DNA of 45,736 nucleotides from Deltaproteobacteria bacterium (GCA_021162935.1 JAGGXR010000102.1:1-45736), one strand, 5' to 3'. Positions 1,408 through 45,736 are shown, counted from the stretch's first letter. Notes: generated by a model not told the origin, from the sequence alone. Numbers and translations are program-made.

Positions 1408-1447
1408 TGTGCTCCCACCAAAAGGTGCTCCCACCAAAAAAGTGTTC

Positions 1448-2311
1448 CTACCAAAACACGTGTCGTCGCTCCTTGAGGCCCAGGTGGATCATGGACTGGA
1501 TGGTGGAACGCACTTCGGCCACGAGCGGTGCGATCTCCTCGTCGTCCAGGTCCGGGTCCGCATCGATGGTCATGGGCGGCCCGAAGTAGAGTCGATACCG
1601 CACGGGCAATGGAACGATGGGCAAAAAAGGCGGAAACGGCACCACGGGGAACGCGGGCGCCCGGAACAGCTTGGCAAGGGGCTCCACGTTGAACGCCGGT
1701 GCCTGTTCTTCGGCGCCGATGACCGCCACCGGCACGATGGGACAACGACTCTCGAGGGCGAGCCGCATGAAACCATGCCCGAATTTTTGGAGCTGATATC
1801 GTTTCGAAAAGGGTTTCGAAATACCGCCAACGCCTTCGGGAAAAACCAGGACGACCTCTTCGTCGTCCAGGAGGCGGATGCAGTTTTCCGGAGTCCCTAC
1901 CACCTGCCCCCAACGGTTCAGGATGAAGCTGACGTATGGGAGGCTCGGGACGTAGCGCTCGATCATGGAGCGAGCCACCCGCGGCGGATCCATGTCGAAG
2001 AGCAACGAGCCGGTGATGACCATCCCGTCGAAAGGGAGCTGCCCCGAATGGTTCGCAATGAGCAGCACGCGCCCAGGAGGAATGTGCTCGGTGCCGTATG
2101 CCTGGGCCCGAAAGTAGTAGCGATACATATATTGGACCAGCAGGACCGCGATTTTTGCCTCATCGCGATTGAACCCGAACGAGTCGTAGCCGTATTCGTT
2201 CTGTCTTGTCGGTAGAGAGAGAAGTTTTTGGACGAATTCCGGATTGAGGCGTTCGTCCAGCCAGTCACGATATCGATGATGCAAAGGGGACAGGATCCGA
2301 TGCAGGAGCAT
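1448..2311 (-). CDS. 1-acyl-sn-glycerol-3-phosphate (lysophospholipid) acyltransferase, PlsC family
   Basis: Contains the acyltransferase H(x4)D box (NHSGQLPFD) and an FPEG motif. A GAGGAGG RBS lies 7 nt before the ATG at 2311. Sits directly upstream of the epimerase on the same strand, so it is probably an operon. Confidence 0.8.
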   Translation of the reverse strand: MLLHRILSPLHHRYRDWLDERLNPEFVQKLLSLPTRQNEYGYDSFGFNRDEAKIAVLLVQYMYRYYFRAQAYGTEHIPPGRVLLIANHSGQLPFDGMVITGSLLFDMDPPRVARSMIERYVPSLPYVSFILNRWGQVVGTPENCIRLLDDEEVVLVFPEGVGGISKPFSKRYQLQKFGHGFMRLALESRCPIVPVAVIGAEEQAPAFNVEPLAKLFRAPAFPVVPFPPFLPIVPLPVRYRLYFGPPMTIDADPDLDDEEIAPLVAEVRSTIQSMIHLGLKERRHVFW

Positions 2312-2323
2312 CTGGCCGCCTCC

Positions 2324-4983: not shown

Positions 4984-5028
4984 ACTGCACGAAAAGGAGT
5001 GTGTCGTGGATTGCCGAGGAGAATCGTG

Positions 5029-16499: not shown

Positions 16500-18260
16500 A
16501 TGTTGCGTCACGAAACGCATCGTCGATGGAATTTGTTGTTGGGACTGCTGACGGCTTGCGGAGTCATCGTAGCTTCGGGCTGTGACCTTGGAGTCGTTGC
16601 GCTCCACAAGGGCGGCGATGGCAGCACCACCCAAGATGGTGGTCCGATCATTGATGGCGGATTGAATGATGGTTCGTTGCTGGACGCGGCGATTGTCGCC
16701 TGCGACAAAAACGAGGATTGCGACGACAGCAATGCCTGCACCACCGAGTCCTGTGGCGACGATTCGATCTGTCACTATTCGCCTGTTTCTTGCGACGATT
16801 CGGATGGCTGCACCAAGGACATCTGTGACCCGGATGCCGGCTGCCACCACGAGGACGCCTGCGACACGAACGCCGTCTGCGTGGACTCCGCCTGTCAATG
16901 CAACCATGGCTTTTCCGGTGATGGAACCACATGTCAGGACATCGACGAATGCGCCACGAGTCAGGCGGGCTGTGACGCCCATGCCACGTGTGCGAACACC
17001 GAGGGGAGTTTCACCTGCACCTGCAACGACGGCTGGCACGGCGACGGGTTTACCTGCAGCCAGACGCTTTGTGCCGATGGAATCTGCGAAGAGGGGGAGA
17101 ACGTGGCGTCCTGCCCCCAAGACTGCGACTACGACCTGGTGGTCCTGGTGGAACAGAGCCTTTCATCCTCGCTCAACAGTGCGCTCCAGCGGTACGTAAG
17201 CGACACGGCGACAGCGAATTGGAAAGTGCGCATCGAGACCTGGTCCGGTGGGGACGTGGGTGCGCTCAAGAATCTCATCCATCAACAGTTCGATGACTAT
17301 GCGATCGAAGGAGCCTGGCTCATTGGGAACTTGCCGGCCGCCTGGTACGAACGCACGTCCTTTGAATCGCCCGAAGAGTTTCCCACAGATATCTTCCTCG
17401 AAACCATGGACGCCACATGGACCGACCAAGACAACGACGGAAAGTACGATGCCCACGGGGATCTCGTGCTGGACATCTACACGTCTCGGCTCATCACGGG
17501 ATCGGCGGCCGAATATCAGGCCTATTTCGACAAGGATCACGACTATCGAACGAACGGATCCCTGGCCAGGAAGGCAGCGTTTCTGTTCTTCGATGACGAC
17601 TGGTCGAGTAACGCGAACACCTTCGGCCTCGATGGTCTCTACGGCACCATCGACATGCTGTCCGACACGAGCGAGACCACGAAGGCCGCCTACATCAGCG
17701 AAATGACTGGTCCTGGAGCAGAGTTCGTGTACCAGTGGATCCATGCGACCCCTACGTTCATGCGTGTGAGCGGAACCGGTGGCGGCGATATCCGCGTGTC
17801 GGACATTGCGGCAGGCAACTACCAAGGGTCCTTTTTCGATCTGTTCGATTGTTCCGCGTCGCGATTTACCGGCACGAATCTGGCGAGTACGTATCTGCTC
17901 AAGACCGATGATGGGTTGGCGACCGTCGGGACCACTAAAATCGGAGGCATGTACTCTCCATCTCATTTCTTCGACCCGTTGGTACAGGGTCATCCTTGGG
18001 GCGAAGCTTTCTTGACCTGGTACAACCAGACGGGCAGACTGAGTGATGAATGGCACCTCGGAATGATGATCCAGGGGGACCCCCTGCTCACCATCGACAA
18101 GGACCCGAATGCGCCGTCCGTGCCCACGACTCCGCAGGTCTGGACCCTGGATCAACTCCAACACCTCCGGCGCATCATGGTGCGCCATGCGGCGCAGGCA
18201 CAACTGGACAGCTTTGATGACTACCAGGCCGACCATCCCGAGTTCTTTCCTCGATACTGA
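16500..18260 (+). CDS. lipoprotein with EGF-like/calcium-binding-EGF-like Cys modules and a ~400-aa C-terminal domain of unknown function (possibly a clan-CD-like peptidase fold)
   Basis: Lipoprotein signal LLGLLTACG (lipobox LTAC). EGF-like module DIDECATSQAGCDAHATCANTEGSFTCTCNDGWHGDGFTC plus further Cys modules. GGAGG RBS. The C-terminal domain contains ..IHATPTFMRVSGTGGG.. and ..FFDLFDCSASRFTG.. about 45 aa apart. Confidence 0.6.
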   Translation: MLRHETHRRWNLLLGLLTACGVIVASGCDLGVVALHKGGDGSTTQDGGPIIDGGLNDGSLLDAAIVACDKNEDCDDSNACTTESCGDDSICHYSPVSCDDSDGCTKDICDPDAGCHHEDACDTNAVCVDSACQCNHGFSGDGTTCQDIDECATSQAGCDAHATCANTEGSFTCTCNDGWHGDGFTCSQTLCADGICEEGENVASCPQDCDYDLVVLVEQSLSSSLNSALQRYVSDTATANWKVRIETWSGGDVGALKNLIHQQFDDYAIEGAWLIGNLPAAWYERTSFESPEEFPTDIFLETMDATWTDQDNDGKYDAHGDLVLDIYTSRLITGSAAEYQAYFDKDHDYRTNGSLARKAAFLFFDDDWSSNANTFGLDGLYGTIDMLSDTSETTKAAYISEMTGPGAEFVYQWIHATPTFMRVSGTGGGDIRVSDIAAGNYQGSFFDLFDCSASRFTGTNLASTYLLKTDDGLATVGTTKIGGMYSPSHFFDPLVQGHPWGEAFLTWYNQTGRLSDEWHLGMMIQGDPLLTIDKDPNAPSVPTTPQVWTLDQLQHLRRIMVRHAAQAQLDSFDDYQADHPEFFPRY

Positions 18261-27264: not shown

Positions 27265-29088
27265 CTATCGGGGAAAAAGGGAGAGATCCAATTCGAACGC
27301 AGCCGCTGGATGGGACAAACCAAAATGTTCCAGAACCTCTGGATGGATTTCTCCCAGATGCCCGATGGGACGCCCCGATACAGACACGATGCCGCAGCGG
27401 CCATCGAGATAGCAACCGAGCGACGCATTTGCAAAACTCGGATCCCGGCCAAGCTCCACGAGTAACTGCTTGCACAGGGATCGTGCATCGGCGGCGCCGG
27501 CCTTGGAATCAATCAATACCGCAGAAACCACGAGGTGCTCACGGGCGCCAGTTTCTGCGGACTCATCCAGATGGGAGGTCGGACCAACCTCGAAGAGCTT
27601 CTGAGGCAACTCCCGATTCGTATTGTGGGCGAGGGTATCGAGCAGACCCGGCAGAAGCGAGAGGCGAAGCATGGTCTGTTCGGCGCTGATAGGATTTTCC
27701 AGAATCACGGCGTTCGGGTCCTCGTCGAGCCTCATTTTGATAAAGGCTTCCTGGTCGGACGTCAGGGCCAGGGTCATGACCTCCAGAAAACCGAATCCGG
27801 TCATGACCTGACGGACGTCGGCGGCACGCTCCTGCTCCGGATCCGGTGCGCCGATGGTCAATGTGGGAACGATGCTCGTCTCGATGTTGTGGTAGCCGAA
27901 CGCGATCGCCACATCCTCCATCAAATCCCGAGGATGGATGATGTCGCTGCGGTAGGCAGGAATCACCACATCGATCCGATCGTCTTCGGTCACCTGGGTG
28001 CGATGACCCATGCATTCGAGGAGCCGAACCACGTCGTCCCGATCCAGATCGATGCCCAGAAGGGATGCCGTGGCCTGAGGGTCGAGCAGCATGGTCGCCG
28101 GGGTCAAGTCCGGCGTGTCGATTTCATGATCAGGATAACGAACGGTCACCTGTTGCACTGCCACGTCAGGCTGAAGTTCCTTGATGGAGGTCACCATGAC
28201 GGCCAGAGCCTTGTTGACGATGTTCTGGTTCGTTCCGGTCACGTCCATGAAAAATCCGCTCGTGGTCTGACGGACCCGGGTCTGCTCACTATTGATGATT
28301 GGAGGCATGGACAGAATCCGCCCCGTGGAATCCCGGAGAATCGGATACCGCCGAAATCCGTCCAGCAGCTTGGCGAATGCCACGCCCTTGGGGTGCTTTT
28401 CGAGAATCTGAGCCGGGGTCATCGCCGAGTCTGTCTCCTCGGGATTACAACCGAGCGGAACGAAAGTCAGTGCATCCGGTTCGACGGATGTGTACTCGAA
28501 AGGCCCCGTGACGGTATCAAGGTCGTAGACACCGATGGAGGCATGCTTGCGATCCCGACCGAGCGCCCAATGGAGATTCTCCTGGAGCTTCATGACCACC
28601 TTGATGAAGTCGTCGTCCAGAGTGATCCCGGAGACCATGGCCGCGGCAATGGCGGGCCTGGGACAGAGATCGGTCTGGGTGGAAGGATCCACGGTCACGC
28701 TCTCGGCAGGCGGCTCGATGTCGTACTCCTTCAGTCCGACCCGATGGCCCAAATATGCGTTGAGGGTTCGGGCGAGGCCGCCTGGATCGAACAGGTCCGG
28801 TCGCACCGCAAGCAGCTCCATACGAAGGACCTCGGTCGAATCGAGTTCGGCCATCTGGTCGGGATGGTCCTTGAACGAGAGACCGCAGCCACCACACAGC
28901 ACGGGAGGTTCTTGGGTTTCGGTGATCTCGGCGATATGCCCGCAACGGTTGCAGCGAAATCGCCTCAGGATGGCGAACCCTTCCACGTCGCATCCGAGAT
29001 GCTGCAGGTGTAAGATGAGGGTGTCCCGATCCATCTTCTCGATCAGACCCTTCTCTAGAAGGTCGACGGATATTCCAATTACCGGCAT
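27265..29088 (-). CDS. pheT: phenylalanine--tRNA ligase beta subunit, archaeal/eukaryotic type (~607 aa)
   Basis: N-terminus MPVIGISVDLL.. and overall length match archaeal/eukaryotic beta (bacterial beta is ~800 aa with an anticodon-binding/Tyr-Arg-rich region). Contains B3/4- and B5-like regions. Has an extra CxxC...CxxC insert (FRCNRCGHIAEITETQEPPVLCGGCG) near the N-terminus. Overlaps pheS by 10 nt. Confidence 0.75.
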   Translation of the reverse strand: MPVIGISVDLLEKGLIEKMDRDTLILHLQHLGCDVEGFAILRRFRCNRCGHIAEITETQEPPVLCGGCGLSFKDHPDQMAELDSTEVLRMELLAVRPDLFDPGGLARTLNAYLGHRVGLKEYDIEPPAESVTVDPSTQTDLCPRPAIAAAMVSGITLDDDFIKVVMKLQENLHWALGRDRKHASIGVYDLDTVTGPFEYTSVEPDALTFVPLGCNPEETDSAMTPAQILEKHPKGVAFAKLLDGFRRYPILRDSTGRILSMPPIINSEQTRVRQTTSGFFMDVTGTNQNIVNKALAVMVTSIKELQPDVAVQQVTVRYPDHEIDTPDLTPATMLLDPQATASLLGIDLDRDDVVRLLECMGHRTQVTEDDRIDVVIPAYRSDIIHPRDLMEDVAIAFGYHNIETSIVPTLTIGAPDPEQERAADVRQVMTGFGFLEVMTLALTSDQEAFIKMRLDEDPNAVILENPISAEQTMLRLSLLPGLLDTLAHNTNRELPQKLFEVGPTSHLDESAETGAREHLVVSAVLIDSKAGAADARSLCKQLLVELGRDPSFANASLGCYLDGRCGIVSVSGRPIGHLGEIHPEVLEHFGLSHPAAAFELDLSLFPR

Positions 29089-30608
29089 TGCGGAGTCTCC
29101 CTGATCCATTGAACATCGGACAGCACGGTCTGCCGAATGTCGGACATGTCGTAGCGGAACATGGCCAGGCGTTCCATCCCGAGGCCCCAGGCCAGAACCG
29201 GAACGCGACAGCCTTGGGGCTCGGTGACTTCCGGTCGAAACACGCCCGCTCCGCCCATCTCGACCCAGTCCTTCCGTTTTTCGTGCCAGACGAATACCTC
29301 CACTGAAGGCTCGGTGTACGGAAAGAACGCAGGCCGAAATTCGAACTTGTCGAAGCCCATCTTCTCATAGAATCGACGCAGCGTTCCGAGTAGCGCGGCG
29401 AAACTCGCGTGCTCGTCCACGATGATCCCGTCAACCTGGTGAAAAACGGGAAGATGTTTGTAGTCCACCGTTTCCCGACGGAACACGCGGCCCACACAGA
29501 ACACCTTTCTGGGCGGATTCGAATCCTGGGCGAGGGCCCGGATGGTCGATGCCGTCGTGTGGGTCCTGAGCACGGCACGCTCAGCCCGCTGCACCTTCCA
29601 GGGAATGCCCCAACCCTTCGATCCGGTGTCGCCGCCATCAACGTGGGTCCGCCGCACGCGTTCCACGAGGTCGGACGACGGAAGTCTGCACCATGCCGGA
29701 CTGGACACGTAAAAGGTGTCCTGCATTTCCCTTGCAGGATGGTCCTGGGGCTGAAACAGCGCATCGAAGTCCCAAAAAGCTGATTCCACGTAGGGGCTGG
29801 TCACTTCACTGAAACCCATTTCCAGAAACACACGTCGCGTTTGTTGCAGGACACGCTGGAAGGGGTGGCTCTTGCCCGGAATGACACTGTAGGACTCCAG
29901 CTCCAGATTATAAGGTCGAAAACGGACCTGCTTCCATTCGTCGTTCTTGAGGAGATCGGGCGTCAGTTCATTGACCTCACGGAGAGAGTCGATGCCCGCC
30001 TTCCATGCGGCTTTGCCTTCGGTGGTGGCCTGGGCGGTGCGCCGCACCCTCTTCTTGGTCTTGAGGAAGCCGCCGCGCTGTCCCAAAAGATCCAGTGCGG
30101 CATCCAGATCAACGCCTCGTTCGCGCAATTCCGACCCGGTCGCCCGTTTCACCTCAGCCAGGGTACGGACCAGTTGTTCATCGGCTCCCAGAGTGTCGTC
30201 GAGGTTTTTCGCCAGGTCTGTTGCCACCACGAGACGACCTTCCTTGTTCGCCCAGCCCTTTTGCTTGAGCCAACGCAGACTCTGACCAACGATTTTTTGG
30301 TCCATTCCCGCGGCTTCGGGAAGAGCCGAAATGTCGGTCGATCCGCCGGCATCCACAAGTGCCTTGGCGACCCGCCGTTCCGGAAACACACCGTCGGAAA
30401 ACAGCTCACCGGCTGGGCCGAGCTGGAATTCCTCGTACTCCTCCTCGTGCAGTTCGACCCAGCCCTGTTCAACCAGTCCTCGAATGGCCGGATCCACTTT
30501 TGCCTGGTCCTGGTTCGTGGCGCCCGCCAACTCGGCGATGGTCACCGGCTTGGATTGCTCGCAGAGGTACTTGAATACTTCATAGGGTCCTGCCGGAAGA
30601 CTCGGCAT
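29079..30608 (-). CDS. pheS: phenylalanine--tRNA ligase alpha subunit, archaeal/eukaryotic type (~509 aa, with an N-terminal winged-helix-like extension)
   Basis: Class II motifs: FQPQDHPAREMQDTFY, KVFCVGRVFRRETVDYKHLPVFHQVDG, and GAGVFRPEV...VLAWGLGMERLAM. The ~280-aa N-terminal extension is as in eukaryotic/archaeal alpha. GGAGGTG RBS before the ATG at 30608. The track ATG at 30620 lies inside the RBS. Confidence 0.8.
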   Translation of the reverse strand: MPSLPAGPYEVFKYLCEQSKPVTIAELAGATNQDQAKVDPAIRGLVEQGWVELHEEEYEEFQLGPAGELFSDGVFPERRVAKALVDAGGSTDISALPEAAGMDQKIVGQSLRWLKQKGWANKEGRLVVATDLAKNLDDTLGADEQLVRTLAEVKRATGSELRERGVDLDAALDLLGQRGGFLKTKKRVRRTAQATTEGKAAWKAGIDSLREVNELTPDLLKNDEWKQVRFRPYNLELESYSVIPGKSHPFQRVLQQTRRVFLEMGFSEVTSPYVESAFWDFDALFQPQDHPAREMQDTFYVSSPAWCRLPSSDLVERVRRTHVDGGDTGSKGWGIPWKVQRAERAVLRTHTTASTIRALAQDSNPPRKVFCVGRVFRRETVDYKHLPVFHQVDGIIVDEHASFAALLGTLRRFYEKMGFDKFEFRPAFFPYTEPSVEVFVWHEKRKDWVEMGGAGVFRPEVTEPQGCRVPVLAWGLGMERLAMFRYDMSDIRQTVLSDVQWIRETPQCR

Positions 30609-30804
30609 ATCCACCTCCATGGCTGCACATCAGGTCATTTGGCGACGCGGCCGGCACAGCCTGGTCCTTTGCCGCAAAGCGACGGCTGGATTATATGCGG
30701 GCTCCTTCGATTGTCACGACGATTATTTTGTGTAACATATATGGGGCGTAAAAAGGAGCTGTCCAGGTTTCCTGATCAGCCGGTATGCGCAAGGCGGGTG
30801 GTCA

Positions 30805-32247
30805 ATGGCTCGAAAAGCTTTGGTGGTCGATCCGGATCCGGGAGTGGCGAAACAGGTGGCGCTTTTTCTGGCAGGGCGTGGTTTCCGCACGGAATTCGTC
30901 CTGCCCGACGATGTGGAAAGCGGCCGAGTCTGGATCAAACTGTCAGATCCAGACCTTGTGCTGCTGATCGTGGATCCTACGGTCGCGGGTGGCCGCGGCC
31001 TCGACGTACTTCGAGACGTGACTCGCATCAATCCGTCGGTGGAAGTGGTCGCCATGGCCGAAAGCCGCACAGCGGAACAGGTGATCCGTGCATTCCGTTC
31101 CGGAGCGGCCGACTTCTTGTGCAAACCGCTCGATATGGACGAACTGGCCCTCGTGGTGAGTCGGATCGACGGTCTCCACCAAACCTTCAGTCAGTACCTG
31201 GAGTATCGACGGGCCATCGAGGTCTACGATGCCTGCCGTAGCCTGTCAGCCTGCTTGGACGTGGACGAACTGTCGCGGTTCGTTCCGGATCTCTTTTCAC
31301 GTCTGTTGAACACGGATGGAGTTCTGGTGCTCCTCGACACGAAGGAGGGGGACCTGAGGCCCGTGGTACGAGTGGGCATCGACTACTCGCAGTCCCAGTG
31401 GTACATGGAAATCATTGCCTCCATGGAATCGCCTCCCGAATCGGGAACGGCCCAGGATCTCGCCACCCTCGGATTGAAGGGCCCACCCGGCATGGAGGAC
31501 AGCCATGCCCTCGTCATCCCTTCGCTGGTGGAAAACGCCGGTCTGGGCGTGGTGGTTCTGATTCGACGCCAGGAGAAGGGATCGTTTACCGGGGACGAAG
31601 TGACCGCCGCCCTGTTCTTGGGGCGACAGACGTTCGTGTCCGTACGTAATGCCGAGGTGTTCAGTCACGTCCACAGTCTGAACTACGTGGACGACATGAC
31701 GGGGCTGTACAACCATCGATATCTCCAGGTGATCCTGGACCGCATGGTTTCCCAACCCCAAGGGCAACCCTTTGCCCTGTTCTTCATCGATTTGGATCGA
31801 TTCAAGACCGTCAATGACCGGTACGGCCATCACACTGGGCGCCAGGTGCTCATCGAAGTTGGCAAACTCCTCGGGCGGGCGACTCGGGATACGGACGTGG
31901 TGGTTCGTTACGGGGGCGACGAATTTGTGGTGATTGCCGTGGAGATTTCCTTGCCCGACGCCACGGCTCTGGCGGAACGAATCCGCACCCACATCGAGCG
32001 GCATCGTTTCCTGGCACGCGAGGGCAAAAACGTCACCTTGACCGCAAGCATCGGGATCGCCCAGTATCCCGAGCATGCCACCACGTCAAAGGCGCTGCTG
32101 GAGCTGGCCGACCTTGCCATGTATCGCGGCAAGAGTCTGGGGCGCAACTGCGTCTACACGGCGGACAGGCTCGAACCACGCCCCGTAACGGGCGAGGTGG
32201 AGATTGATGAGTTCAAACCGAGTCCAGAACACTTCGAAGACGGTTGA
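30805..32247 (+). CDS. response-regulator receiver + GAF-like + GGDEF diguanylate cyclase
   Basis: N-terminal REC-like fold (..LVLLIVDPTV..CKP). The C-terminal GGDEF domain has an intact GGDEF (RYGGDEFVV) and an RxxD I-site (RDTD) 5 residues upstream. Confidence 0.75.
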   Translation: MARKALVVDPDPGVAKQVALFLAGRGFRTEFVLPDDVESGRVWIKLSDPDLVLLIVDPTVAGGRGLDVLRDVTRINPSVEVVAMAESRTAEQVIRAFRSGAADFLCKPLDMDELALVVSRIDGLHQTFSQYLEYRRAIEVYDACRSLSACLDVDELSRFVPDLFSRLLNTDGVLVLLDTKEGDLRPVVRVGIDYSQSQWYMEIIASMESPPESGTAQDLATLGLKGPPGMEDSHALVIPSLVENAGLGVVVLIRRQEKGSFTGDEVTAALFLGRQTFVSVRNAEVFSHVHSLNYVDDMTGLYNHRYLQVILDRMVSQPQGQPFALFFIDLDRFKTVNDRYGHHTGRQVLIEVGKLLGRATRDTDVVVRYGGDEFVVIAVEISLPDATALAERIRTHIERHRFLAREGKNVTLTASIGIAQYPEHATTSKALLELADLAMYRGKSLGRNCVYTADRLEPRPVTGEVEIDEFKPSPEHFEDG

Positions 32248-32256
32248 GGTCGGGGG

Positions 32257-35200
32257 CTACTGTCGAACAGCGTTGAAATAGATGTCTCCGTGGACGTCGT
32301 CTGTCCTGGTGTCCACCCAAACGACGTACCCATCCGTAGCACCATCCGTCATAAGTCGCGGAGAGAAGGACTCGGCCGATCCAGGCGGACTCGCTCCATC
32401 AAGGCGGACATCGGCCGGCTGAAAGTTGAGCCCGCTATCCAAGGAATAGTTGAGGTAGATATCCCTCAGACCGTCCCGGTCGTCTGCAAAAGCGACGAAG
32501 ACCTTGCTGCCTCCCGACGCCAACTGAACGTCTGAAACGTATCCCGGACCGGCCGAAGCCCGAACCGACGAACGAATCGTGGCACCGTAGTCGATCGAGC
32601 TTGCGACTCGGATCATGGGCAGCCCCTCACGAAAGTCCTGCCACGCCATATACAAGGTCCCCGTCTGCCCCAAGGCGAAGCTCGGTTCGTACGAATTCGC
32701 GTCGCCCTTGTCGCTGTCCACCTGCCGGTCAGCGAGCCAACTCGTGCCGTTGTCCACCGAACGTGCAAGGTAGATGTCCGAGTAGGGGACTCGACGCAGG
32801 TCCTGCCAAATCACGTAGACATGTCCGGCTCCGTCCGTGCCCATTCGCGGATACTTCGACGCAGCCGCTCCGGCCGCGTCCGTATCGAGTCGAAGGTCGG
32901 AGGTGCCAAACGTCGCCATGTCATCGGTTGAATTCAGATAAATGTCCGCCGCCCCATCCCGCTGGTCCATCCATGTCACGAGAATCCGACCCGACTGGCC
33001 GATGGCCACGCGGGGCAGTGAAGCAAGAGCATGGGTCGGATCGGAAGGCACCTGGTTCACTCTGAGAGGCGATGTAAAAGTCTGGCCATGGTCGGAGGAT
33101 GCGGCAAGATAGACGTTGTGTTGTGGATTCGTATTGCCCGATCCCTCCACGAAATCCTCCCAAACCACGGCCACTCGGCCGGCTCCATCAGCAGTCAGGT
33201 CCAGGTTGAGTGAATCCACGTTTCCCGTGTCCAGTCGTTTCTCAGCATCGAATGCGGCACCACAGCCTGCGGCCCTTCTGAAGTAGATGTCACGGTCTCC
33301 ACCCGTACGAAAGTCCGTGTATACCACGTACACCCAGCCACTCGGATCGGCGAACACGCGTGGCTTGACGCTATCGGACGAGCCCGTGTCCAGACGAAGG
33401 TCGGCACTCCAGGTGACCCCACCGTCCGAAGAACAGGCATAATAGATGTCTGCGTTGCCGTTTCTCGTGTCCAGCCAGACGACGTACACGTTGTTTCCAT
33501 CGGCAGCAAGGTCCACCTGGATGGAGTTGGCTGCGCCTGGATTGCTCGTGATGTCCAATCGTTGGTCCGTTGAGTCTTCGGTGACACATCCCGCCAGGTC
33601 GGTGGTACTGTCGCAGTCGTTGTCCAGGCCGTCACAGACTTCAGCGGATGGGTCTACATTGCCTTCACAGATTAGGTGATGGTTGGTGCAGGCGGTCGTG
33701 CCGTATCGACATTCACCCGTGTTCGACACGCCGCACTGGACGCCGACTCCCTGTGGGTCATCATCCACAAAGCCGTTGCAATCGTTGTCCTTGCCGTCGC
33801 AGATCTCCGGCTGGGGATCGATGGCACCCTGACAGATTACCTGGCCGTTCGGGCACACGGTGACGCCCACCTGACACTCACCCACGGAACTGCCGCACAG
33901 GTCGCCCGTGTCCAACGTATCGTTGTCCGGCTGTCCATCGCAGTCGTTATCGACTCCATCACAGATTTCCGGCTGCGGGTTGATGCTGCCCGAGCAGACC
34001 AGGATCCCGGACGAGCAGGCCCATGTACCTTGCTGGCACGCTCCCTGATTCGTCCCACAGACACCGCCCGTATCGATGAGGTGGTTGTCCGCCACTCCGT
34101 CGCAATCATCGTCGAGGCCGTTGCAGGTTTCGGCGACCGGCCCCTGCCCACCCTGGCACAGTGGCTGTCCGCCTTGGCAGACCATGGTCCCTCGCTGACA
34201 TTGCCCAACGCCGGTGCCGCAGGGGCCGCCCACGTCCACTGGCGCGTTGTCGGTTACGCTGTCGCAGTCATTGTCCTTGCCGTCACACACCTCCACATGG
34301 TGGCCGACACCTCCAGAACAGATCAGAATTCCAGATGAACAGGCCCACGATCCATGCTGACATTCTCCTTCATCTCTACCACACGAGCCACCAACATCGG
34401 TCAGGTTGTTGTCGGCAACGCCATCGCAGTCGTTGTCAACGCCGTCGCAGACTTCTGTGCCACTGTTCGTCTCGGTGCAGGTGTATTCGCATCCGTTCCC
34501 CGGAGCGTTGTCCAAATTCACATACCCAGGCTTGCAGGAGATCAGGACGCAGCTTCCCAAGACACAGTCCATGGTGGCGTTTGGTGCCGAACAGACATGA
34601 CCGCAGGATCCGCAGTTTGCCGGATTCGACGACGTGTCCACGTTGTCGTCGATGCTCCCATTGCAATCATTGTCCAGACCATCGCAGATCTCCACGCCTC
34701 CGTTGGTTGCAACGCAGGCGTACTCGCATCCGTCGTTTTCGTCCTGGTCCAGATCCAGAAATCCGTCATGGCACCGGGTCAACCGACAGTGGCCCTCTTG
34801 ACACTCGGAATCCGCGTTCGTCAAGGCGCATGCGGTGCCGCACGATCCACAATTTGACTCGTCATTCATCAGGTCAAAATCTTCGTCCGTCTCGCCGTCG
34901 CAATCGTTGTCCAGACCGTCGCAGAGTTCCTGGCCCCCATTCGAGGGCATACAGGCGTATTCACATCCGTCAGACATGTCGTGATCCAGATCGATGTAGC
35001 CCGGAGCACAACCCTGGAACACGCACTTGCCCTGCTTGCAGTAACTGAAGCCGCCCGGAACCTGGCAAGAATTCCCGCAGGATCCGCAGTTGTCCGAATC
35101 CAGGGCCAGGTTGAAGTCTTCGTCGGTCAGTCCGTCACAGTCGTTGTCCAGTCCGTCGCAAAGTTCTGTGCCGCCGTTGGTGACCTCGCAGGGTCCTGCA

Positions 35201-38160
35201 TCCACCTTGTGGACCCCGCTGTCGTTCCTTTGGGGTGAGTATCCGTCGATGTCCTGGAACTGGTATGGATTCATGTTGCAACCACCCAGGATGAACACGG
35301 TCGCAACCGCTGCGACGAGCCTTTTACGTCGTTTCCAAACCAACGCAAACAGGGCCAGCAGGACGAGCCACAGGCCCTGGCCGGATTCACCAGCCGAGTC
35401 ACAGGAACAGCCGCCCCCACCAATGGCCAACACCTGCTGACCTGACCTGCCGGGAACGTAGTCGGATGGGTCCTGGCACTGCCCTTCTGTGCAGGTGCCA
35501 CCCAAAGGGCAGGTGACCTGCGCGCAGGGATCGTCCACGCATTGGCCGTCGCTACAGACGCGGTCCTTGCCGCAATCCACTCCACTGCAGGGATCTGGTT
35601 CACAGACGCCGTCCCGGCAGCGGTTGCCCCAGCCGCAATCCTTGTCGACGCAGGGATCCTGACTGCAGATGCCGTCCTTGCAGCTTTGTCCCGCCGAGCA
35701 AACCACGTGCTCACAGGTGTTCACACATTCACCCTGGCGACAAAACTGGTGATCCGAGCAGGTGACCTGGGCACAGGGATCATCGATACAGGTGGCGTCC
35801 CGGCAGACCTGGCCATCGGGGCACCCAAGCCCATAGCAACTGTTCTCGATGCACTGGCCTTTTTCGCAAATTTCGTCGTCCGTGCATTGGACGATATCGC
35901 ACAGGTCCACGCACTGACCGTCTTGACAGATCTGCCCTTCTGGGCAGGACACGCCGTAGCATGCAGTCTGCACGCAGTAGCCGTCCTGACAGGCCATGCC
36001 GCCCGGGCATTGAAATTCGCCTTCACTGCAAGAGATGCGACAGGCGCAGTCCACACATTGTGAACCAGGCGGACAGAGGTCTCCGTTGTCGGTCTGTCCA
36101 TCGCAATCATTGTCGACGCAGTCGCAGATTTCCGACACGGGCCCCACTGCGCCATCGCATTGCAGGGCACCGGCGATGCAGTGGATGGCGCCCAAAGAAC
36201 AGATGCCTTCGTTCGTGATGCCGCAGACACCACCACCTCCCGGATCGTCATTATCCACGACGCCATCACAGTCATTGTCCCGTCCGTCGCAGACTTCTGG
36301 CTGCGGTCCGATGGCCCCCTGACACACGAGTTGCCCCCCGATGCACTGATAGATACCTGGCCGACACTCCCCTTTGTTCTCTCCACACGGACCGCCCTCG
36401 TCCACAGGATTGTCGTCCACGACACCGTTGCAGTCGTTGTCATTGCCGTCGCAGACTTCGGGCTGCGGCCCGATGGAACCCTGACACACGAGAGCGCCGT
36501 TGACGCAGACCTCGATACCGGTCTGGCACTCTCCCACGCCGCTGCCACAAGAGCCTCCGGCATCCGTTGGATTGTTGTCGGTATGGCCGTCACAGTCATT
36601 GTCCAGGTTGTCGCAGACTTCTGATTGCGGCCCCACGGCACCCTGGCAAATTGGGGCGCCGTTCGAGCAAACCATGGTGCCCGTCTGGCATTCCCCTTCG
36701 TCCTTGCCGCAGGTACCTCCCACGTCGATGGGGTTGTCGTCGATGGCGTTGTTGCAATCATTGTCCAGGTTGTCGCAAACCTCAGGTTGCGGCCCCACGG
36801 CTCCCTGGCAGGTCAAGGCACCGTTGCTGCACACAGTCGTTCCATGGCTGCATTCTCCCACGTCCGTGCCGCAGGTGGCCCCCTCGTCGATGGGGTTGTT
36901 GTCCGTGTCGTTGTCGCAGTTGTTGTCGATGTTGTCACAGACTTCGGGGGATGGTTTGACCTCTCCTTGGCATATCAAATGGTGTTGGTAGCAAACCGTG
37001 ACACCCTGCTGGCACTGGCCCACGTTCGAGCCGCAGGGTTGGCCGTCGTCGGTGAGATTGTCGTCCGGAGTTCCATTGCAGTCATCGTCGAGCCCGTTGC
37101 ACGTTTCGGGCTGTGGTCCGACTTCCCCCTGGCAGACCAGATGGCCGTCCGTACAGACAGTATGCCCCGTGGAGCAGGTGCCCACGTTCGTGCCGCAGGC
37201 GCTTCCCTCGTCGATGAGGTTGTCGTCCGTGGTGCCATTGCAGTCATTGTCCAGGTTGTCGCAGATCTCAGGTTGCGGCCCCACAGCTCCCTGGCAGACC
37301 AGGTGGCTGTCCGTGCAAACTTGGATGCCCTGCTGACATTCTCCCTCGTCCGTGCCGCAGGGGCCACCGGCGTCGACCGGATCTTCGTCGGTCTGGCCGT
37401 CACAGTCGTTGTCCTGCCCATCGCAAATTTCCGGATTCGGGACACAAGGCGGCGTCAACCCCTCGACCAAGAGGGTCATGTCGGTGAAGTCGTTGTCGCC
37501 ACCTCGAAACAGATCTTCGAAGGCGAAGTAGAATCGGTTTTGGTGCGCCTTGGACGTAAAGACCAGGAAATGGACGTAGTCGCCATCGCCGTTGAGTTCG
37601 GTCTCCGTGTAATACATGTGACCGAAAAGATCCGGCGGCGTGAAGTCGCCGCAGTTCACATGTGGGCTCGATGTGTTGCCCTGAGGCGTGATGAGGTAGA
37701 AGCCGATGAAACCGCCATCCCAGCGTCCGTTGTCGAACTGGACATCGAAGTCGATGTCCGTGGCGTCGCCGGGTTCATTGTTGACAGGGCTGCAGTCGAA
37801 AATCACGTACAGGTGGTTCGGGTCTCCGACGTTGTACCAGCCGAAGCTGTTCTCGTATCCCGCCTGCTCCTGGATGTCTTCGAAATGCACCGTCCGCCCG
37901 GAGCCATATTCCGGAGGCAAAAAGATCTGTGGAAACAAATAGGCGTCTTTGGTGGCATCGAGATAGTTCGGATCGTTTGGATTCGAAATCCCTTCGCTCG
38001 TCTCCAATTGGGTTTGAAGGCTGTTGGTGGTGGGGACGATGGTGCCATCCACTTGACTGACCGTCGCCCGAGCGCTCAGGTCGAACAGGACACCCGAGGC
38101 AACCAGAACAACGGTACCAGAAATGATGGCAACGAGACGTAAGGAAACGAAACGTTTCAT
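32257..38160 (-). CDS. giant secreted repeat protein that looks like two fused genes. Part 1: signal peptide + DUF4114-like domain + 9 MopE-like DNDCDG repeats + Cys-rich stalk + MYXO-CTERM. Part 2: lipoprotein signal + 9 MopE-like repeats + BNR/Asp-box beta-propeller.
   Basis: Start at MKRFVSLRLVAIISGTVVLVASG (ATG 38160, AGGAG RBS). Eighteen C-x-DG-x-DNDC(D/N)G-x-D repeats. A mid-protein GGGGCSCDSAG...LWLVLLALFALVWKRRKR segment is immediately followed by LVAAVATVFILGGC. C-terminal Asp-box repeats are SSDGGVTWS, SSDHGQTFT, SVDNGTSWL, SLDSGLNF. The long plus-strand ORFs across this interval are antisense artefacts. Confidence 0.7.
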   Translation of the reverse strand: MKRFVSLRLVAIISGTVVLVASGVLFDLSARATVSQVDGTIVPTTNSLQTQLETSEGISNPNDPNYLDATKDAYLFPQIFLPPEYGSGRTVHFEDIQEQAGYENSFGWYNVGDPNHLYVIFDCSPVNNEPGDATDIDFDVQFDNGRWDGGFIGFYLITPQGNTSSPHVNCGDFTPPDLFGHMYYTETELNGDGDYVHFLVFTSKAHQNRFYFAFEDLFRGGDNDFTDMTLLVEGLTPPCVPNPEICDGQDNDCDGQTDEDPVDAGGPCGTDEGECQQGIQVCTDSHLVCQGAVGPQPEICDNLDNDCNGTTDDNLIDEGSACGTNVGTCSTGHTVCTDGHLVCQGEVGPQPETCNGLDDDCNGTPDDNLTDDGQPCGSNVGQCQQGVTVCYQHHLICQGEVKPSPEVCDNIDNNCDNDTDNNPIDEGATCGTDVGECSHGTTVCSNGALTCQGAVGPQPEVCDNLDNDCNNAIDDNPIDVGGTCGKDEGECQTGTMVCSNGAPICQGAVGPQSEVCDNLDNDCDGHTDNNPTDAGGSCGSGVGECQTGIEVCVNGALVCQGSIGPQPEVCDGNDNDCNGVVDDNPVDEGGPCGENKGECRPGIYQCIGGQLVCQGAIGPQPEVCDGRDNDCDGVVDNDDPGGGGVCGITNEGICSLGAIHCIAGALQCDGAVGPVSEICDCVDNDCDGQTDNGDLCPPGSQCVDCACRISCSEGEFQCPGGMACQDGYCVQTACYGVSCPEGQICQDGQCVDLCDIVQCTDDEICEKGQCIENSCYGLGCPDGQVCRDATCIDDPCAQVTCSDHQFCRQGECVNTCEHVVCSAGQSCKDGICSQDPCVDKDCGWGNRCRDGVCEPDPCSGVDCGKDRVCSDGQCVDDPCAQVTCPLGGTCTEGQCQDPSDYVPGRSGQQVLAIGGGGCSCDSAGESGQGLWLVLLALFALVWKRRKRLVAAVATVFILGGCNMNPYQFQDIDGYSPQRNDSGVHKVDAGPCEVTNGGTELCDGLDNDCDGLTDEDFNLALDSDNCGSCGNSCQVPGGFSYCKQGKCVFQGCAPGYIDLDHDMSDGCEYACMPSNGGQELCDGLDNDCDGETDEDFDLMNDESNCGSCGTACALTNADSECQEGHCRLTRCHDGFLDLDQDENDGCEYACVATNGGVEICDGLDNDCNGSIDDNVDTSSNPANCGSCGHVCSAPNATMDCVLGSCVLISCKPGYVNLDNAPGNGCEYTCTETNSGTEVCDGVDNDCDGVADNNLTDVGGSCGRDEGECQHGSWACSSGILICSGGVGHHVEVCDGKDNDCDSVTDNAPVDVGGPCGTGVGQCQRGTMVCQGGQPLCQGGQGPVAETCNGLDDDCDGVADNHLIDTGGVCGTNQGACQQGTWACSSGILVCSGSINPQPEICDGVDNDCDGQPDNDTLDTGDLCGSSVGECQVGVTVCPNGQVICQGAIDPQPEICDGKDNDCNGFVDDDPQGVGVQCGVSNTGECRYGTTACTNHHLICEGNVDPSAEVCDGLDNDCDSTTDLAGCVTEDSTDQRLDITSNPGAANSIQVDLAADGNNVYVVWLDTRNGNADIYYACSSDGGVTWSADLRLDTGSSDSVKPRVFADPSGWVYVVYTDFRTGGDRDIYFRRAAGCGAAFDAEKRLDTGNVDSLNLDLTADGAGRVAVVWEDFVEGSGNTNPQHNVYLAASSDHGQTFTSPLRVNQVPSDPTHALASLPRVAIGQSGRILVTWMDQRDGAADIYLNSTDDMATFGTSDLRLDTDAAGAAASKYPRMGTDGAGHVYVIWQDLRRVPYSDIYLARSVDNGTSWLADRQVDSDKGDANSYEPSFALGQTGTLYMAWQDFREGLPMIRVASSIDYGATIRSSVRASAGPGYVSDVQLASGGSKVFVAFADDRDGLRDIYLNYSLDSGLNFQPADVRLDGASPPGSAESFSPRLMTDGATDGYVVWVDTRTDDVHGDIYFNAVRQ

Positions 38161-38402
38161 GGCTCCTACTCCTGTGATTGGATCCACAATCGTGGGGTGT
38201 CGATTACGAGGACGCTCTCATCCTTCGGCCATTCGGCCCGAACCCCAAGCCGATCAAGGACCTCCTTTACATCTTACACCAACCCCCCTCGTTGTCATCG
38301 ACTGAATCGCCGACTCACAGAGTGTGACTCATTCATTGACTGGTGCAAGGATGGCTCCTAAAGTAGCAGCCAGAATCTCGCCGTTTGGAAAGAGGAATCG
38401 CA

Positions 38403-38804
38403 ATGGAGCGTGCAAGACGGGTGCTCGTGGTCGAAGACTCGGATGCAATGCGTCACATCGCCTGTGACGTGTTGGAGATGGAGGGCTTCGAAGTCCTTGA
38501 GGCAGTCAGCGGATTCGATGCCCTCAAGCTGCTTGCTGCCGAGCAGGTCGACGTGGTGGTGACCGACATCAACATGCCGGACCTGACCGGCCTGGAACTC
38601 ATCAAGTTTTGTCGCAGCGATCCGAAGCGAAAAGACATCCCGGTGATCGTAATCTCGACGGATTCATCGGCGGCCGACAGGGAACGGGCCATCAAGCTGG
38701 GAGCCAACGATTACCTGGTCAAGCCCTTCGAACCGGATGATCTGGTGGCAGCCTGCCGTCGACGCATCGATGCCACGACAGAGACACGAGGCGGCGATGA
38801 GTGA
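38403..38804 (+). CDS. CheY-like single-domain response regulator
   Basis: VLVVEDSDAMR...VVVTDINMPDLTG...KP gives the D-D-K receiver signature. AGAGGA RBS 7 nt before the ATG at 38403. The track start at 38385 is a TTG. Confidence 0.8.
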   Translation: MERARRVLVVEDSDAMRHIACDVLEMEGFEVLEAVSGFDALKLLAAEQVDVVVTDINMPDLTGLELIKFCRSDPKRKDIPVIVISTDSSAADRERAIKLGANDYLVKPFEPDDLVAACRRRIDATTETRGGDE

Positions 38805-40839
38805 GGGCACCGGAAAACTGAGCCTATCTGAATTCTTGGTGGAGGCTCAAGAAATCGTCGAAGAATTTGGGCATTCGCTCATGGAACTGGACCGGGCGGT
38901 TGCTGCCGGCACAGCTCCCCCACCCGACCTGGTCAATTCCTGTTTCCGTTCGATCCACACACTCAAGGGTCTGTCGGGGCTGTCCGGGGTGGAGTCCATG
39001 GCGAGGCTCTCCCACATCATGGAAGATGTCCTCGATGGTGTCCGCATGGGCCGGGTCGCGCCCGAGCGGGGCATGTTGGATCTGTTGTTCGAGTCATCCG
39101 AACTGCTCCAAGCCATGATGGCGGCAGCCAAGGGTGAGGTGACAGAGCCGGTACAGCAAGCCGAGTCCCTCATGGCGCGGTTGCAGGCGGCGGCGGCCCA
39201 AGGGCCCTCGTCTGACCGTAAGGCGATCCTGTCCGGATTGGATCCAACGCTTCTGGACGTGCTCACCGAATATGAAGAGCACCGGCTACGCGAAAACGTT
39301 TCATCGGGCAAGCATCTGTACGTGGTTGGGGTGAACCTGGACATCGTATCCGTGGACAAGGATCTCGACGCGGTTCGGGAGGGACTCCAGGGATTCGGTG
39401 AGGTCATCACGTACCTGCCCGCCGAAGGGGCGCTGGACGACAGCAAGTTGGCCCTCGAAGTCCTCTTCGCCGGCGACGTAGAGGCGCAGGTAGTGCTCGA
39501 AACCGTCCAGGCCATCGACCCAACCGCGCAACTTCGCAAGTTGAATACAGCGCCGCCTCGTCCGGCACCGCTTCCCCCCGAAGCCCCCGAAGTGGAATCC
39601 GCCGCTTTGGAAATGTCTCTCAAGAGTGTTTCGGCGACGGTGCGCGTGGACATCGGAAAGCTCGATAGTCTGATGAACGTGGTGGGCGAATTGAACATGA
39701 GTGTTTCAGCCCTGACCGAGTTGCTCACGTCGGACGAGGATGCCCACCAAAGCCGGAGCTTTCGCCACCAGATGTCCAAGACGCAACGAACCCTGCAACG
39801 GGTCGTGGGGCACCTGCAGCAGCGCATCCTCGACATTCGTATGGTGCCGGTGGAACGGTTGTTCCAGAAGCTTTCCCGAGTGGTTCGAAAGTTGTCTCGT
39901 AGTTCGGGCAAACTGATCGAACTCAAGATGATAGGCGGTGACACGGAACTGGACAAGCTCATCATCGAGGAGCTATCCGACCCGCTCATGCATATCATCC
40001 GCAACGCCGTGGATCATGGCATCGAAAAACCGGACTTCCGAGTCCGGATGGGCAAAAACGAACAGGGGACCATCACGCTCAGAGCCCGCCAGCAGGGAAG
40101 CCACGTGATCGTCGAAGTCGAAGACAATGGGGCGGGCATCGACCGAGCAGCCGTGATTCGAACGGCCAAAGCCAGCAACCTCATCGAGGAGCCGGATGCA
40201 AGGGACCTGTCCGACCGGGAAGTGTACAATTTGTTGTTTCGTCCTGGATTCTCCACCAACACCGATGTGACCGAAGTTTCAGGCAGGGGGGTGGGGCTGG
40301 ATGTGGTCAAGACGAACCTAGCCAGGCTCTCGGGAATCATCGATATCCAGTCGACGCCGGGTGCCGGCACCACCTTCATTTTGACCCTGCCCGTCACGCT
40401 GGCCATCATTCGCGTGCTCATGGTCCGGGTTACCGATGAACTGTATGCGGTTCCGCTCAATGCCGTCATGGAGGCGGTGGCGATTCAGCCCGAAAAGATT
40501 CGGATAGTCGGTCGACGTGAAATCGTGGATCTGCGAGGCACGACCCTGCCGGTTTTGCGACTTGAGGAACTCTTCGATCTGCCCCGTTCTGCCCAGCCCC
40601 CCCGAGACGCCGATCGGCAGTTCATGATCGTCGTGGGATTGGCCCAACATCGTGTGGGACTGATCGTGGATGAACTGTACCATCAACAGGACATCATCAT
40701 CAAACCGCTTGGAGCCACGCTGGAGGATGTGCGCGGAATTGCCGGAGCCACGATCCTGGGCTCTCAAAAGGTCGTCTTGGTCCTCGACCTTGCGGCTCTG
40801 ATCGAAGACATTCTGGACCAGGCCCGAAATGCCGCCTGA
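38797..40839 (+). CDS. cheA: CheA-type histidine kinase (HPt/P1, dimerisation, HATPase, CheW-like P5)
   Basis: HPt signature FRSIHTLKGLSGLSG. ATP-binding boxes (..HIIRNAVDHGIE.., DNGAGID, GRGVGLDVV). C-terminal CheW-like domain. Starts 8 nt inside the CheY-like gene (ATGAGTGA overlap). Confidence 0.85.
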   Translation: MSEGTGKLSLSEFLVEAQEIVEEFGHSLMELDRAVAAGTAPPPDLVNSCFRSIHTLKGLSGLSGVESMARLSHIMEDVLDGVRMGRVAPERGMLDLLFESSELLQAMMAAAKGEVTEPVQQAESLMARLQAAAAQGPSSDRKAILSGLDPTLLDVLTEYEEHRLRENVSSGKHLYVVGVNLDIVSVDKDLDAVREGLQGFGEVITYLPAEGALDDSKLALEVLFAGDVEAQVVLETVQAIDPTAQLRKLNTAPPRPAPLPPEAPEVESAALEMSLKSVSATVRVDIGKLDSLMNVVGELNMSVSALTELLTSDEDAHQSRSFRHQMSKTQRTLQRVVGHLQQRILDIRMVPVERLFQKLSRVVRKLSRSSGKLIELKMIGGDTELDKLIIEELSDPLMHIIRNAVDHGIEKPDFRVRMGKNEQGTITLRARQQGSHVIVEVEDNGAGIDRAAVIRTAKASNLIEEPDARDLSDREVYNLLFRPGFSTNTDVTEVSGRGVGLDVVKTNLARLSGIIDIQSTPGAGTTFILTLPVTLAIIRVLMVRVTDELYAVPLNAVMEAVAIQPEKIRIVGRREIVDLRGTTLPVLRLEELFDLPRSAQPPRDADRQFMIVVGLAQHRVGLIVDELYHQQDIIIKPLGATLEDVRGIAGATILGSQKVVLVLDLAALIEDILDQARNAA

Positions 40840-45081: not shown

Positions 45082-45351
45082 ATGAGAGTACATGCTCATG
45101 TCCACGGATTGGTGCAGGGAGTCTCTTTCCGCTATTTCGTGCTTTCGGCGGCAAAAAGGCTGACGGTGACGGGATGGGTTCGCAACCGTTCCGATGGATC
45201 GGTGGAATTCGTTGCAGAAGGGCCACGCGACGATCTCGACAGCCTGATCGACGCCTGTCGTAAGGGCCCCCCCATGGCCCGGGTGGATCGCTTGGATGCG
45301 CAATGGGAGAACGAGCAGGCTTCCATGTCGGATTTTCAGATTCGATTCTAA
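45082..45351 (+). CDS. acyP: acylphosphatase
   Basis: VHGLVQGVSFRYF... acylphosphatase signature. 89 aa. Confidence 0.85.
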   Translation: MRVHAHVHGLVQGVSFRYFVLSAAKRLTVTGWVRNRSDGSVEFVAEGPRDDLDSLIDACRKGPPMARVDRLDAQWENEQASMSDFQIRF

Positions 45352-45736
45352 CGGCGGCGCCTCAGCACAAAAAATAGGCCGGCAAAAATGAACGGCAACC
45401 AGGGCATTCGGCTCGACCCCGACGCGTGGCAGGCACAGCCGCCACCGCCCGAGGCGCTCACGCTGAAATCCTTGGGCCCCACCTGTCCATCACCTACCGC
45501 CGCATCCAGGACGGACGCGTCCCTCTGATTCGGGCCACCGTCCCGGCCCGTTCCCGAGTCAGAAACCCCGCCATCCTGTTCCACTGGCTCGCTCGAAACA
45601 CATTGGCCTCGTTCGTCACATTGGCTGCCCGACGGACAGACGATGAGACGACACGGATCGTCGATACAGGAGCCATGACGGCAAACCCGACCCGACCCAC
45701 ACATGACTCCACCGCAGGGATCCTGAGCACATTGGC
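45348..45736 (-). CDS. Cys-rich secreted protein with MYXO-CTERM tail. Partial: the N-terminus lies beyond the window edge.
   Basis: The C-terminus GGGGCACHASGSSRMPWLPFIFAGLFFVLRRRR* is a textbook Gly-Cys / TM / Arg-cluster tail. The upstream sequence (CIDDPCRLIVCPSGSQCDERGQC) resembles the Cys-rich stalk of the giant protein. The reading frame stays open from 45704 to the window end. Confidence 0.6.
   Translation of the reverse strand, partial: QCAQDPCGGVMCGSGRVCRHGSCIDDPCRLIVCPSGSQCDERGQCVSSEPVEQDGGVSDSGTGRDGGPNQRDASVLDAAVGDGQVGPKDFSVSASGGGGCACHASGSSRMPWLPFIFAGLFFVLRRRR

Follow-up and report, generated by a model that had tools for sequence, protein, structure and literature searches.

Described systems with internal sorting signals

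The myxosortase MrtX cleaves the MYXO-CTERM sorting signal at its invariant cysteine, and sorting tags are stated to work when they lie mid-protein (Sah et al., mBio 2025; PMC11980579). The single example given, described as rare, is MXAN_5598 of Myxococcus xanthus, which carries an internal MYXO-CTERM; its authors attribute it to a fusion of two genes resembling TraA/TraB and suggest processing of the N-terminal portion, which would become anchored at the cell surface (PMC11980579). Here we describe a minus-strand open reading frame (ORF) in which an internal MYXO-CTERM signal runs, without a stop codon, directly into a lipoprotein signal of the signal peptidase II type. The ORF lies in a 45,736-nucleotide stretch of DNA from a Deltaproteobacteria bacterium (GCA_021162935.1 JAGGXR010000102.1:1-45736), which as a whole is called the window and from whose first letter all coordinates are counted. 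The stop-free, back-to-back arrangement is confirmed, with coordinates and sequence as given in an original prediction made from the DNA alone, and the fusion that it represents is almost certainly real and conserved.

Like MXAN_5598, the window protein carries its MYXO-CTERM mid-way in a long ORF. In MXAN_5598 an outer-membrane β-barrel and OmpA domain lie downstream, whereas in the window protein a lipoprotein signal of the signal peptidase II type follows the tag directly; the junction is moreover kept in 33 loci including the window, the basic cluster is often common to both signals, and split orthologues are documented. In TraA/TraB of M. xanthus, the ORF of the MYXO-CTERM surface protein overlaps that of its partner envelope protein (PMC11980579), forming an overlapping A/B module like the split loci described below; however, TraB is an OmpA-domain protein rather than a lipoprotein, and the PA14-type receptor is unrelated to DUF4114, MopE, or the propeller. 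The similarity to TraA/TraB is one of resemblance, not homology. As cited in the M. xanthus study, a Tat substrate of Haloferax volcanii has a central PGF-CTERM-like tripartite signal processed by the archaeosortase ArtA (Abdul Halim et al. 2017, via PMC11980579), which, to the extent of that citation, is a precedent for processing of a non-terminal “C-terminal” tripartite signal; as cited, it differs in being archaeal, in its enzyme and motif, and in having no lipoprotein signal after it. The n-region, h-region, and lipobox of canonical lipoproteins (Lgt, LspA, Lnt; PS51257) are all present in the window signal, but it lies ~960 residues into the protein and after a stop-transfer helix instead of at the N terminus. 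The MopE-related or “Notch-like” repeat proteins of Myxococcota (PF11617) agree with the window protein in repeat content and in the database names of its homologues, but those annotations cover the repeats only and do not mention the internal junction.

An internal MYXO-CTERM explained by gene fusion is already known, having been noted once in the literature (MXAN_5598). Its direct pairing with a lipoprotein signal, often with a shared basic cluster, the maintenance of this pairing in dozens of species belonging to two or more protein families, and its toggling with a translationally coupled gene pair appear undescribed in the literature searched, in which we found nothing on an internal lipobox or internal lipoprotein signal and no paper on a family combining DUF4114, MopE, and MYXO-CTERM.

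Two sorting signals back to back in one frame

The junction comprises residues 923 to 970 (GGGGCSCDSAGESGQGLWLVLLALFALVWKRRKRLVAAVATVFILGGC; G923 at 35421..35419 and C970 at 35280..35278), where residue numbers are codons of the 1976-codon ORF and the likely ATG start is residue 10 (M10). Free of stops, it reads GGGGCSCDSAGESGQGLWLVLLALFALVW (GGGGCSC...LWLVLLALFALVW), KRRKR, LVAAVATVFILGG, and C. Translation from the likely start, the ATG at 38160, gives a product of 1967 amino acids (aa) and 205.8 kDa, which is called as one gene on an independent public ENA metagenome scaffold. A 13-residue Kyte–Doolittle scan of the whole protein found only three strong hydrophobic segments: the signal peptide (13 to 39), then 935 to 953 and 955 to 972.

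The NCBIfam MYXO-CTERM model TIGR03901 aligns with residues 924 to 956 (profile positions 1 to 33 of 34), scoring 26.0 bits (E = 8.8e-6) on an excised 74-aa segment and 19.4 bits on the whole 1976-aa protein. Among the features of MYXO-CTERM proteins listed by Haft (bioRxiv 10.1101/2023.06.07.544157), the window protein has the signature GGGGC927SC, with a cysteine that is invariant at the domain start across the 33 junctions; a hydrophobic helix, LWLVLLALFALVW (hydropathy peak 2.79), followed by KRRKR, where two to five basic residues are asked for; a signal peptide on the same protein (residues 10 to 41); and other, unrelated carriers nearby. It departs from them in position: 1,020 residues follow R956, and the same domain is terminal in 29 split orthologues. 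Elsewhere in the window, a 499-aa ORF (4999..6498, plus strand) ends in a canonical C-terminal MYXO-CTERM (...FVGGCSMASSQPSRLPLGILIALALGLAWSRRRGNGERRYR, then stop) and provides a control for normal terminal use of the tag, and a Cys-rich/MopE protein (45348..45704, minus strand, continuing past the window end; 886-aa gene, at 153..2813 of the overlapping scaffold L001) also has a canonical terminal MYXO-CTERM (...SASGGGGCACHASGSSRMPWLPFIFAGLFFVLRRRR, then stop). No lipoprotein partner lies downstream of the gene ending at 45348, where an acylphosphatase is next. Because two canonical terminal MYXO-CTERM proteins are encoded in the same window, the organism uses the MYXO-CTERM pathway.

In the second signal, AVATVFILGGC matches the lipobox core {DERK}(6)-[LIVMFWSTAG](2)-[LIVMFYSTAGCQ]-[AGS]-C (PROSITE PS51257), and KRRKR, common to the MYXO-CTERM, forms the n-region. 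Lipoprotein signals place this cysteine between residues 15 and 35 of the precursor, but Cys970 is residue 961 from the ATG. It would be residue 22 if translation started at the in-frame TTG (35343..35341, L949) that the original prediction correctly located, but no ribosome site backs that start. Stand-alone orthologues (P0005-7, P0022, P0025, P0035, and P0038) begin with M...lipobox-C and continue with the same x-x-x-P-Y motif, and Cys970 aligns with their lipobox cysteine. An ordinary N-terminal lipoprotein ORF in the window (16500..18260, plus strand; MLRHETHRRWNLLLGLLTACGVIVASGC DL...) offers a comparison for the internal signal.

The fused frame recurs and alternates with a coupled gene pair

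Of 23,480 nucleotides compared between the ENA scaffold and the window, 14 differ, which marks the scaffold as an independent assembly or strain; it encodes an identical protein. A search with the C-terminal half (C-half) detected many full-length homologues of 1,680 to 1,800 aa (33 to 56% identity) with an N-terminal DUF4114 and a C-terminal propeller, showing the same stop-free internal junction of GGGC, helix, RRR, hydrophobic segment, and [AGS]-C. Stand-alone versions of the C-half start with a normal lipoprotein signal, and in two of their contigs the stop of the upstream gene, which encodes a DUF4114/MopE protein, overlaps the lipoprotein start by 4 nucleotides (GTGA, ATGA). The N-terminal DUF4114 domain alone, as a protein query, returned 29 short fragments that carried no architecture information.

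For a genome census, an N-terminal-domain alignment was scanned against one genome per species, and the best 80 loci among 166 relatives were kept. Apart from two cultured organisms, Polyangium fumosum DSM 14668 and Polyangium sp. y55x31, the sources are metagenome-assembled genomes that are assigned to Myxococcota or Deltaproteobacteria or, for a few, carry a vaguer label. Junctions of loci L017, L019, L021, and L070 were parsed by eye and with anchors. The window and the 80 loci include 33 fused (the window counted), 29 split, and 15 truncated or unclear cases. In the split form, gene A encodes a DUF4114/MopE protein with a true C-terminal MYXO-CTERM (for example, ...GAGGVDCSVRGG..WSLVLLLGVWAVRRRRG, then stop), and gene B encodes a MopE/β-propeller lipoprotein.

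The two forms differ at the nucleotide level as well. Split gene A stops 5 to 27 residues past the basic cluster, and gene B starts at −1 or +2 nucleotides relative to that stop (ATGA/GTGA, or a TGATG overlap), whereas fused loci have no stop. A GGAG/GAGG/AGGA motif is found 4 to 17 nucleotides upstream of the start in 28 of the 29 split loci versus none of the 33 fused loci, seven of which have no in-frame start codon anywhere in the junction; the fused C-half could therefore be made only within the long precursor. The window lacks the tail of A and the n-region of B as well as the ribosome site and the stop and start codons between them, so that KRRKR runs straight into the h-region, and junctions as compact occur in other species, such as RRRR-AALALVVLVSC (L051) and RRRKR-LVAMAV...GAAGC (L037). 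Since the ribosome site, stop, and start are absent, the fused loci are not frameshifted copies of split loci.

The original prediction had offered a 1- to 2-nucleotide indel at the A4 run as one explanation. The out-of-frame TAA to which it pointed is present, inside CGT AAA, but in the split form the lipoprotein gene is read in a different frame, is preceded by a GGAGG site of its own, and has a start that overlaps the stop, none of which is kept in the window, and a restored stop after KRRKR would not regenerate the split arrangement. Its proposal of a gene fusion holds in the evolutionary sense, the halves being adjacent genes in the same order in 29 other genomes, but recent stop loss is not supported as the mechanism. 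The stop after the basic cluster that it suggested looking for in related loci is found in the 29 split loci, and the frame is uninterrupted in 33 including the window. By the Rosetta-stone criterion, each half has its own gene in the 29 split loci, where the two genes lie side by side in unchanged order, and the fused frame is reproducible and inherited rather than an accident of a single genome. Judged from these sequence comparisons, the junction is a real in-frame fusion of two genes that form a module, and evolution has maintained it.

In split loci L006-L008, L048, L053, L064, L072-L078, and others, the tail of protein A after the Arg cluster (ending GGAR, EVSR, or GRAS before the stop) is what results when the GGAGG(TG) ribosome-binding site of the lipoprotein gene that follows is translated, so that the sequence of the tail is under constraint as RNA.

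Conservation and evolutionary depth of the junction

Mean column identity in an alignment of the 33 fused junctions is 31%, and the only invariant columns are the two cysteines (C927 and C970 in the window), with one Arg at least 90% conserved. The loops between the helices vary from 3 to 31 residues and hold three to nine Lys and Arg against zero or one Asp and Glu, a charge that fits a cytoplasmic location. TIGR03901 matches 20 of the junctions and TIGR03382 matches 11; the strict lipobox pattern is present in 24, and the other nine keep [AGS]-C. One fused junction also matches NCBIfam NF058595, “lipo-invert putative C-terminal anchoring domain” (E = 0.006), and four match JDVT-CTERM; both are other Cys-containing tail families that resemble the region.

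In a neighbour-joining tree of the N-terminal domain (62 taxa, roughly 40 to 70% identity), the fused or split state follows deep clades with at least three changes between them. The window groups with fused loci L004, L009, and L010 and adjoins a split clade (L006-L008). Because the state is clade-structured and the two cysteines are invariant, the fusion has outlasted deep divergence while the rest of the junction, its charge apart, drifted. As to direction, fusion or fission, the midpoint-rooted tree prefers a fused root, but not robustly.

A second protein family with the junction

A profile built from the window and 25 database junctions was searched against 1.84 billion representative proteins and gave 120 matches at E <= 1e-3. 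The complete junction is present in 69 of these and is internal in 52, in proteins of median 1,657 aa and maximum 4,799 aa; another 22 matches cover the MYXO-CTERM half alone, at a true C terminus. The search revealed a second family, in which MopE repeats, with or without a VWA domain, are followed by the junction and then by MopE repeats and an FGE-sulfatase-like (sulfatase-modifying-factor-like) domain. The complete genome of the cultured Sandaracinus amylolyticus has this family in split form, and there too the two genes overlap at ATGA. Database names of the homologues (“MopE-related,” “exo-alpha-sialidase,” “SUMF1 family enzyme”) ignore the junction.

Three giant junction proteins (P0166, P0168, and P0169) are 4,000 to 4,800 aa long with the junction near the middle; P0169, the only giant scanned with Pfam, contains MopE repeats and a VWA domain. 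The mature lipoprotein halves have a conserved motif right after the lipobox cysteine, approximately C-x-V-[DE]-P-[YF]-C-x-x-C, which is common to the propeller and FGE-sulfatase families and of which the window has the variant C-N-M-N-P-Y-Q-F (35254..35280).

Proposed processing and its alternatives

In the split module, gene A encodes a secreted DUF4114/MopE protein with a MYXO-CTERM, and gene B, translationally coupled to it, a MopE/β-propeller lipoprotein. Because fusion would have removed A's tail, the ribosome site, the stop, and B's start and n-region, KRRKR would double as the n-region of B. The N-terminal signal peptide would carry the first half across the inner membrane, where the MYXO-CTERM helix would act as a stop-transfer sequence, leaving KRRKR in the cytoplasm; the lipoprotein h-region would then re-initiate export of the second half, the two helices forming a 42-residue membrane hairpin. 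Such a topology is coherent and would place the two large halves on the outer side of the cytoplasmic membrane. Lgt and LspA would lipidate Cys970 and cut before it, and the MYXO-CTERM pathway (myxosortase MrtX) would process at Cys927. The predicted products are a surface protein of ~92 kDa, anchored at its C terminus, and a lipoprotein of ~105 kDa, acylated at its N terminus, in a 1:1 ratio, the hairpin being discarded, and would be the same two as in the split arrangement.

Full processing by both the MYXO-CTERM pathway and Lgt/LspA, giving two lipid-anchored proteins, is in our assessment probable. It is favoured by three observations: both cysteines are invariant, the fused form interchanges with the gene pair, and no independent start is left. 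Processing of a fusion at the junction was also among the possibilities raised in the original prediction and is the one that the evidence favours, with the cleavages themselves as predicted steps. The full proposal of a “lipo-polyprotein,” in which a back-to-back cassette of ~40 to 70 residues would be excised by MrtX and Lgt/LspA to release two proteins anchored with opposite polarity in a strict 1:1 ratio, has by our estimate slightly better than an even chance of being right.

Several points weigh against dual processing. We infer both cleavages from conservation. Every fused example comes from a metagenome assembly, and the cultured strains found (Polyangium, Sandaracinus) are all split; no cultured organism with the fused form was found, cluster look-ups of 10 representatives giving metagenome-derived entries only. 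In the window both helices are short, at 13 residues each, with a loop of only five residues between them, and the MYXO-CTERM score of the whole protein is slightly under the curated cut-off (19.4 versus 20). In the literature searched we found no case in which Lgt/LspA was reported to act on a signal peptide inside a protein.

The alternative that survives best, although unlikely, is that only one of the signals is processed, for example with LspA freeing the lipoprotein half while the hairpin keeps the first half in the inner membrane, or the reverse. The ~14 extra residues after the basic cluster are unlike a canonical tag, and split A tails have just 5 to 27 residues; but the tail remaining after LspA cleavage (loop and h-region, ~18 residues in the window) is within the tail lengths of the split proteins, both cysteines are invariant, and the MYXO-CTERM model is above cut-off on most junctions. 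We consider it a shade less likely again that the protein stays intact, a permanent helical hairpin anchoring the ~206-kDa product in the inner membrane, its two large domains both periplasmic and the motifs left as relics of fusion. Although the topology is equally compatible with such an anchor, a plain anchor needs neither cysteine, yet the cysteines are the sole invariant residues across the 33 junctions; given the age of the fused state, decay of relic motifs would be expected; and fused and split orthologues would have very different localisations. Separate production of the C-half from an internal start such as the TTG at 35343, with the long ORF incidental, is very improbable. That TTG precedes KRRKR in frame, and a protein begun at this codon would be a textbook lipoprotein precursor, but a Shine–Dalgarno-like motif before an in-frame start is found in 0 of 33 fused versus 28 of 29 split loci, seven fused loci are without any candidate start, and ribosomes on the first half would read through anyway because there is no stop; internal initiation was rejected on the missing ribosome motifs and candidate starts. 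Least credible is an artefact or pseudogene created when a sequencing or assembly error, as the original prediction had allowed, or a recent stop loss or frameshift merged two genes in one genome: the junction does resemble two gene ends with an out-of-frame TAA at the A-run, but we rejected sequencing error and a pseudogene on the second assembly, which encodes the identical protein despite 14 differences elsewhere, on the same uninterrupted junction in 32 other species-level loci and 52 representative proteins, and on the missing ribosome site, stop, and start, all of which would still be there had a split locus been merged in error, and both halves are intact through 1976 codons.

If dual processing of the fused precursor is correct, the junction would be a compact natural cassette by which one gene yields two differently lipid-anchored envelope proteins, LspA and Lgt would accept internal signal peptides, and myxosortase would accept non-terminal tags. 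Since evolution has toggled between the fused and the coupled two-gene forms, both would then be functionally equivalent. The junction gives direct tests of whether MrtX needs a free C terminus, of lipidation of the MYXO-CTERM cysteine, and of Lgt/LspA action on an internal signal. Annotation pipelines treat these proteins as single polypeptides and miss both sorting signals, and predictors that consider only the termini will mislocalise both halves. From the comparison of split and fused forms we predict that the DUF4114/MopE surface protein and the propeller lipoprotein, which are widespread in Polyangia-type myxobacteria, are partners, whether physically or in function.

Layout of the protein and neighbouring genes

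The features of the window protein are collected in Table 1. Following the signal peptide, the mature end xxSQVDGTxVP is conserved in homologues, and Pfam PF11617 (MopE-type) matches 17 stretches across the whole protein. Modelled with AlphaFold2, the C-terminal 495 residues form a confident β-propeller (predicted local distance difference test [pLDDT] 88.7, predicted template modelling score [pTM] 0.87), for which Foldseek against the PDB finds sialidase-type propellers (E about 1e-11, template modelling [TM] score 0.4 to 0.5, 10 to 16% identity). As modelled, the likeness of this domain to sialidase-type propellers is at the fold level only, and searching the PDB by sequence with this domain yielded just one marginal match.

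Table 1. Positions of the predicted features of the fused ORF and its product in the window; residues are codons of the ORF
Feature	Coordinates	Strand	Basis
Whole ORF, 1976 codons	32257..38187	−	Single uninterrupted frame
N-terminal Sec-type signal peptide, M10-A41 (predicted cleavage between ...LSARA and TVSQVDGT)	38065..38160	−	Hydropathy peak 2.7, homologue N-termini
Conserved N-terminal domain including DUF4114, invariant motif FEDLxRGGDNDF	37408..38100	−	Pfam DUF4114 match, residues 158-242 (37462..37716)
N-half MopE-type repeats (CDGxDNDCDG, “putative metal-binding motif”)	36088..37440 (approximate)	−	Pfam PF11617, sequence
Cys-rich stalk of short C-x-x-G-x-x-C repeats ahead of sorting signal	35473..36087 (approximate)	−	Sequence
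Internal MYXO-CTERM sorting signal, residues 924-956	35320..35418	−	TIGR03901, invariant Cys column, hydropathy
MYXO-CTERM part: GGGC signature, Cys927	35409..35407	−	
MYXO-CTERM part: helix L939-W951	35373..35335	−	
MYXO-CTERM part: KRRKR	35334..35320	−	
Internal lipoprotein (signal peptidase II type) signal	35278..35334	−	PS51257 core pattern, invariant Cys column, orthologue alignment
Lipoprotein-signal part: n-region, same KRRKR	35334..35320	−	
Lipoprotein-signal part: h-region L957-G969	35319..35281	−	
Lipoprotein-signal part: lipobox L-G-G-C, Cys970	35280..35278	−	
C-half MopE-type and Cys-rich repeats (NGGxExCDGxDNDCDG...NCGxCG)	33745..35220 (approximate)	−	Sequence, Pfam
C-terminal sialidase/BNR-like β-propeller domain	32260..33744	−	AlphaFold2, Foldseek, weak Pfam BNR matches

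No obvious sorting enzyme was detected among the neighbours of the ORF, and no myxosortase gene was recognised among those annotated on the overlapping scaffold L001, the search for mrtX being confined to the window. The flanks of the ORF (27265..32247 and 38385..40839) hold pheS/pheT-like genes and a response-regulator/GGDEF gene (30805..32247, plus strand) on one side and, on the other, a response regulator and CheA-like kinase (38385..40839, plus strand).

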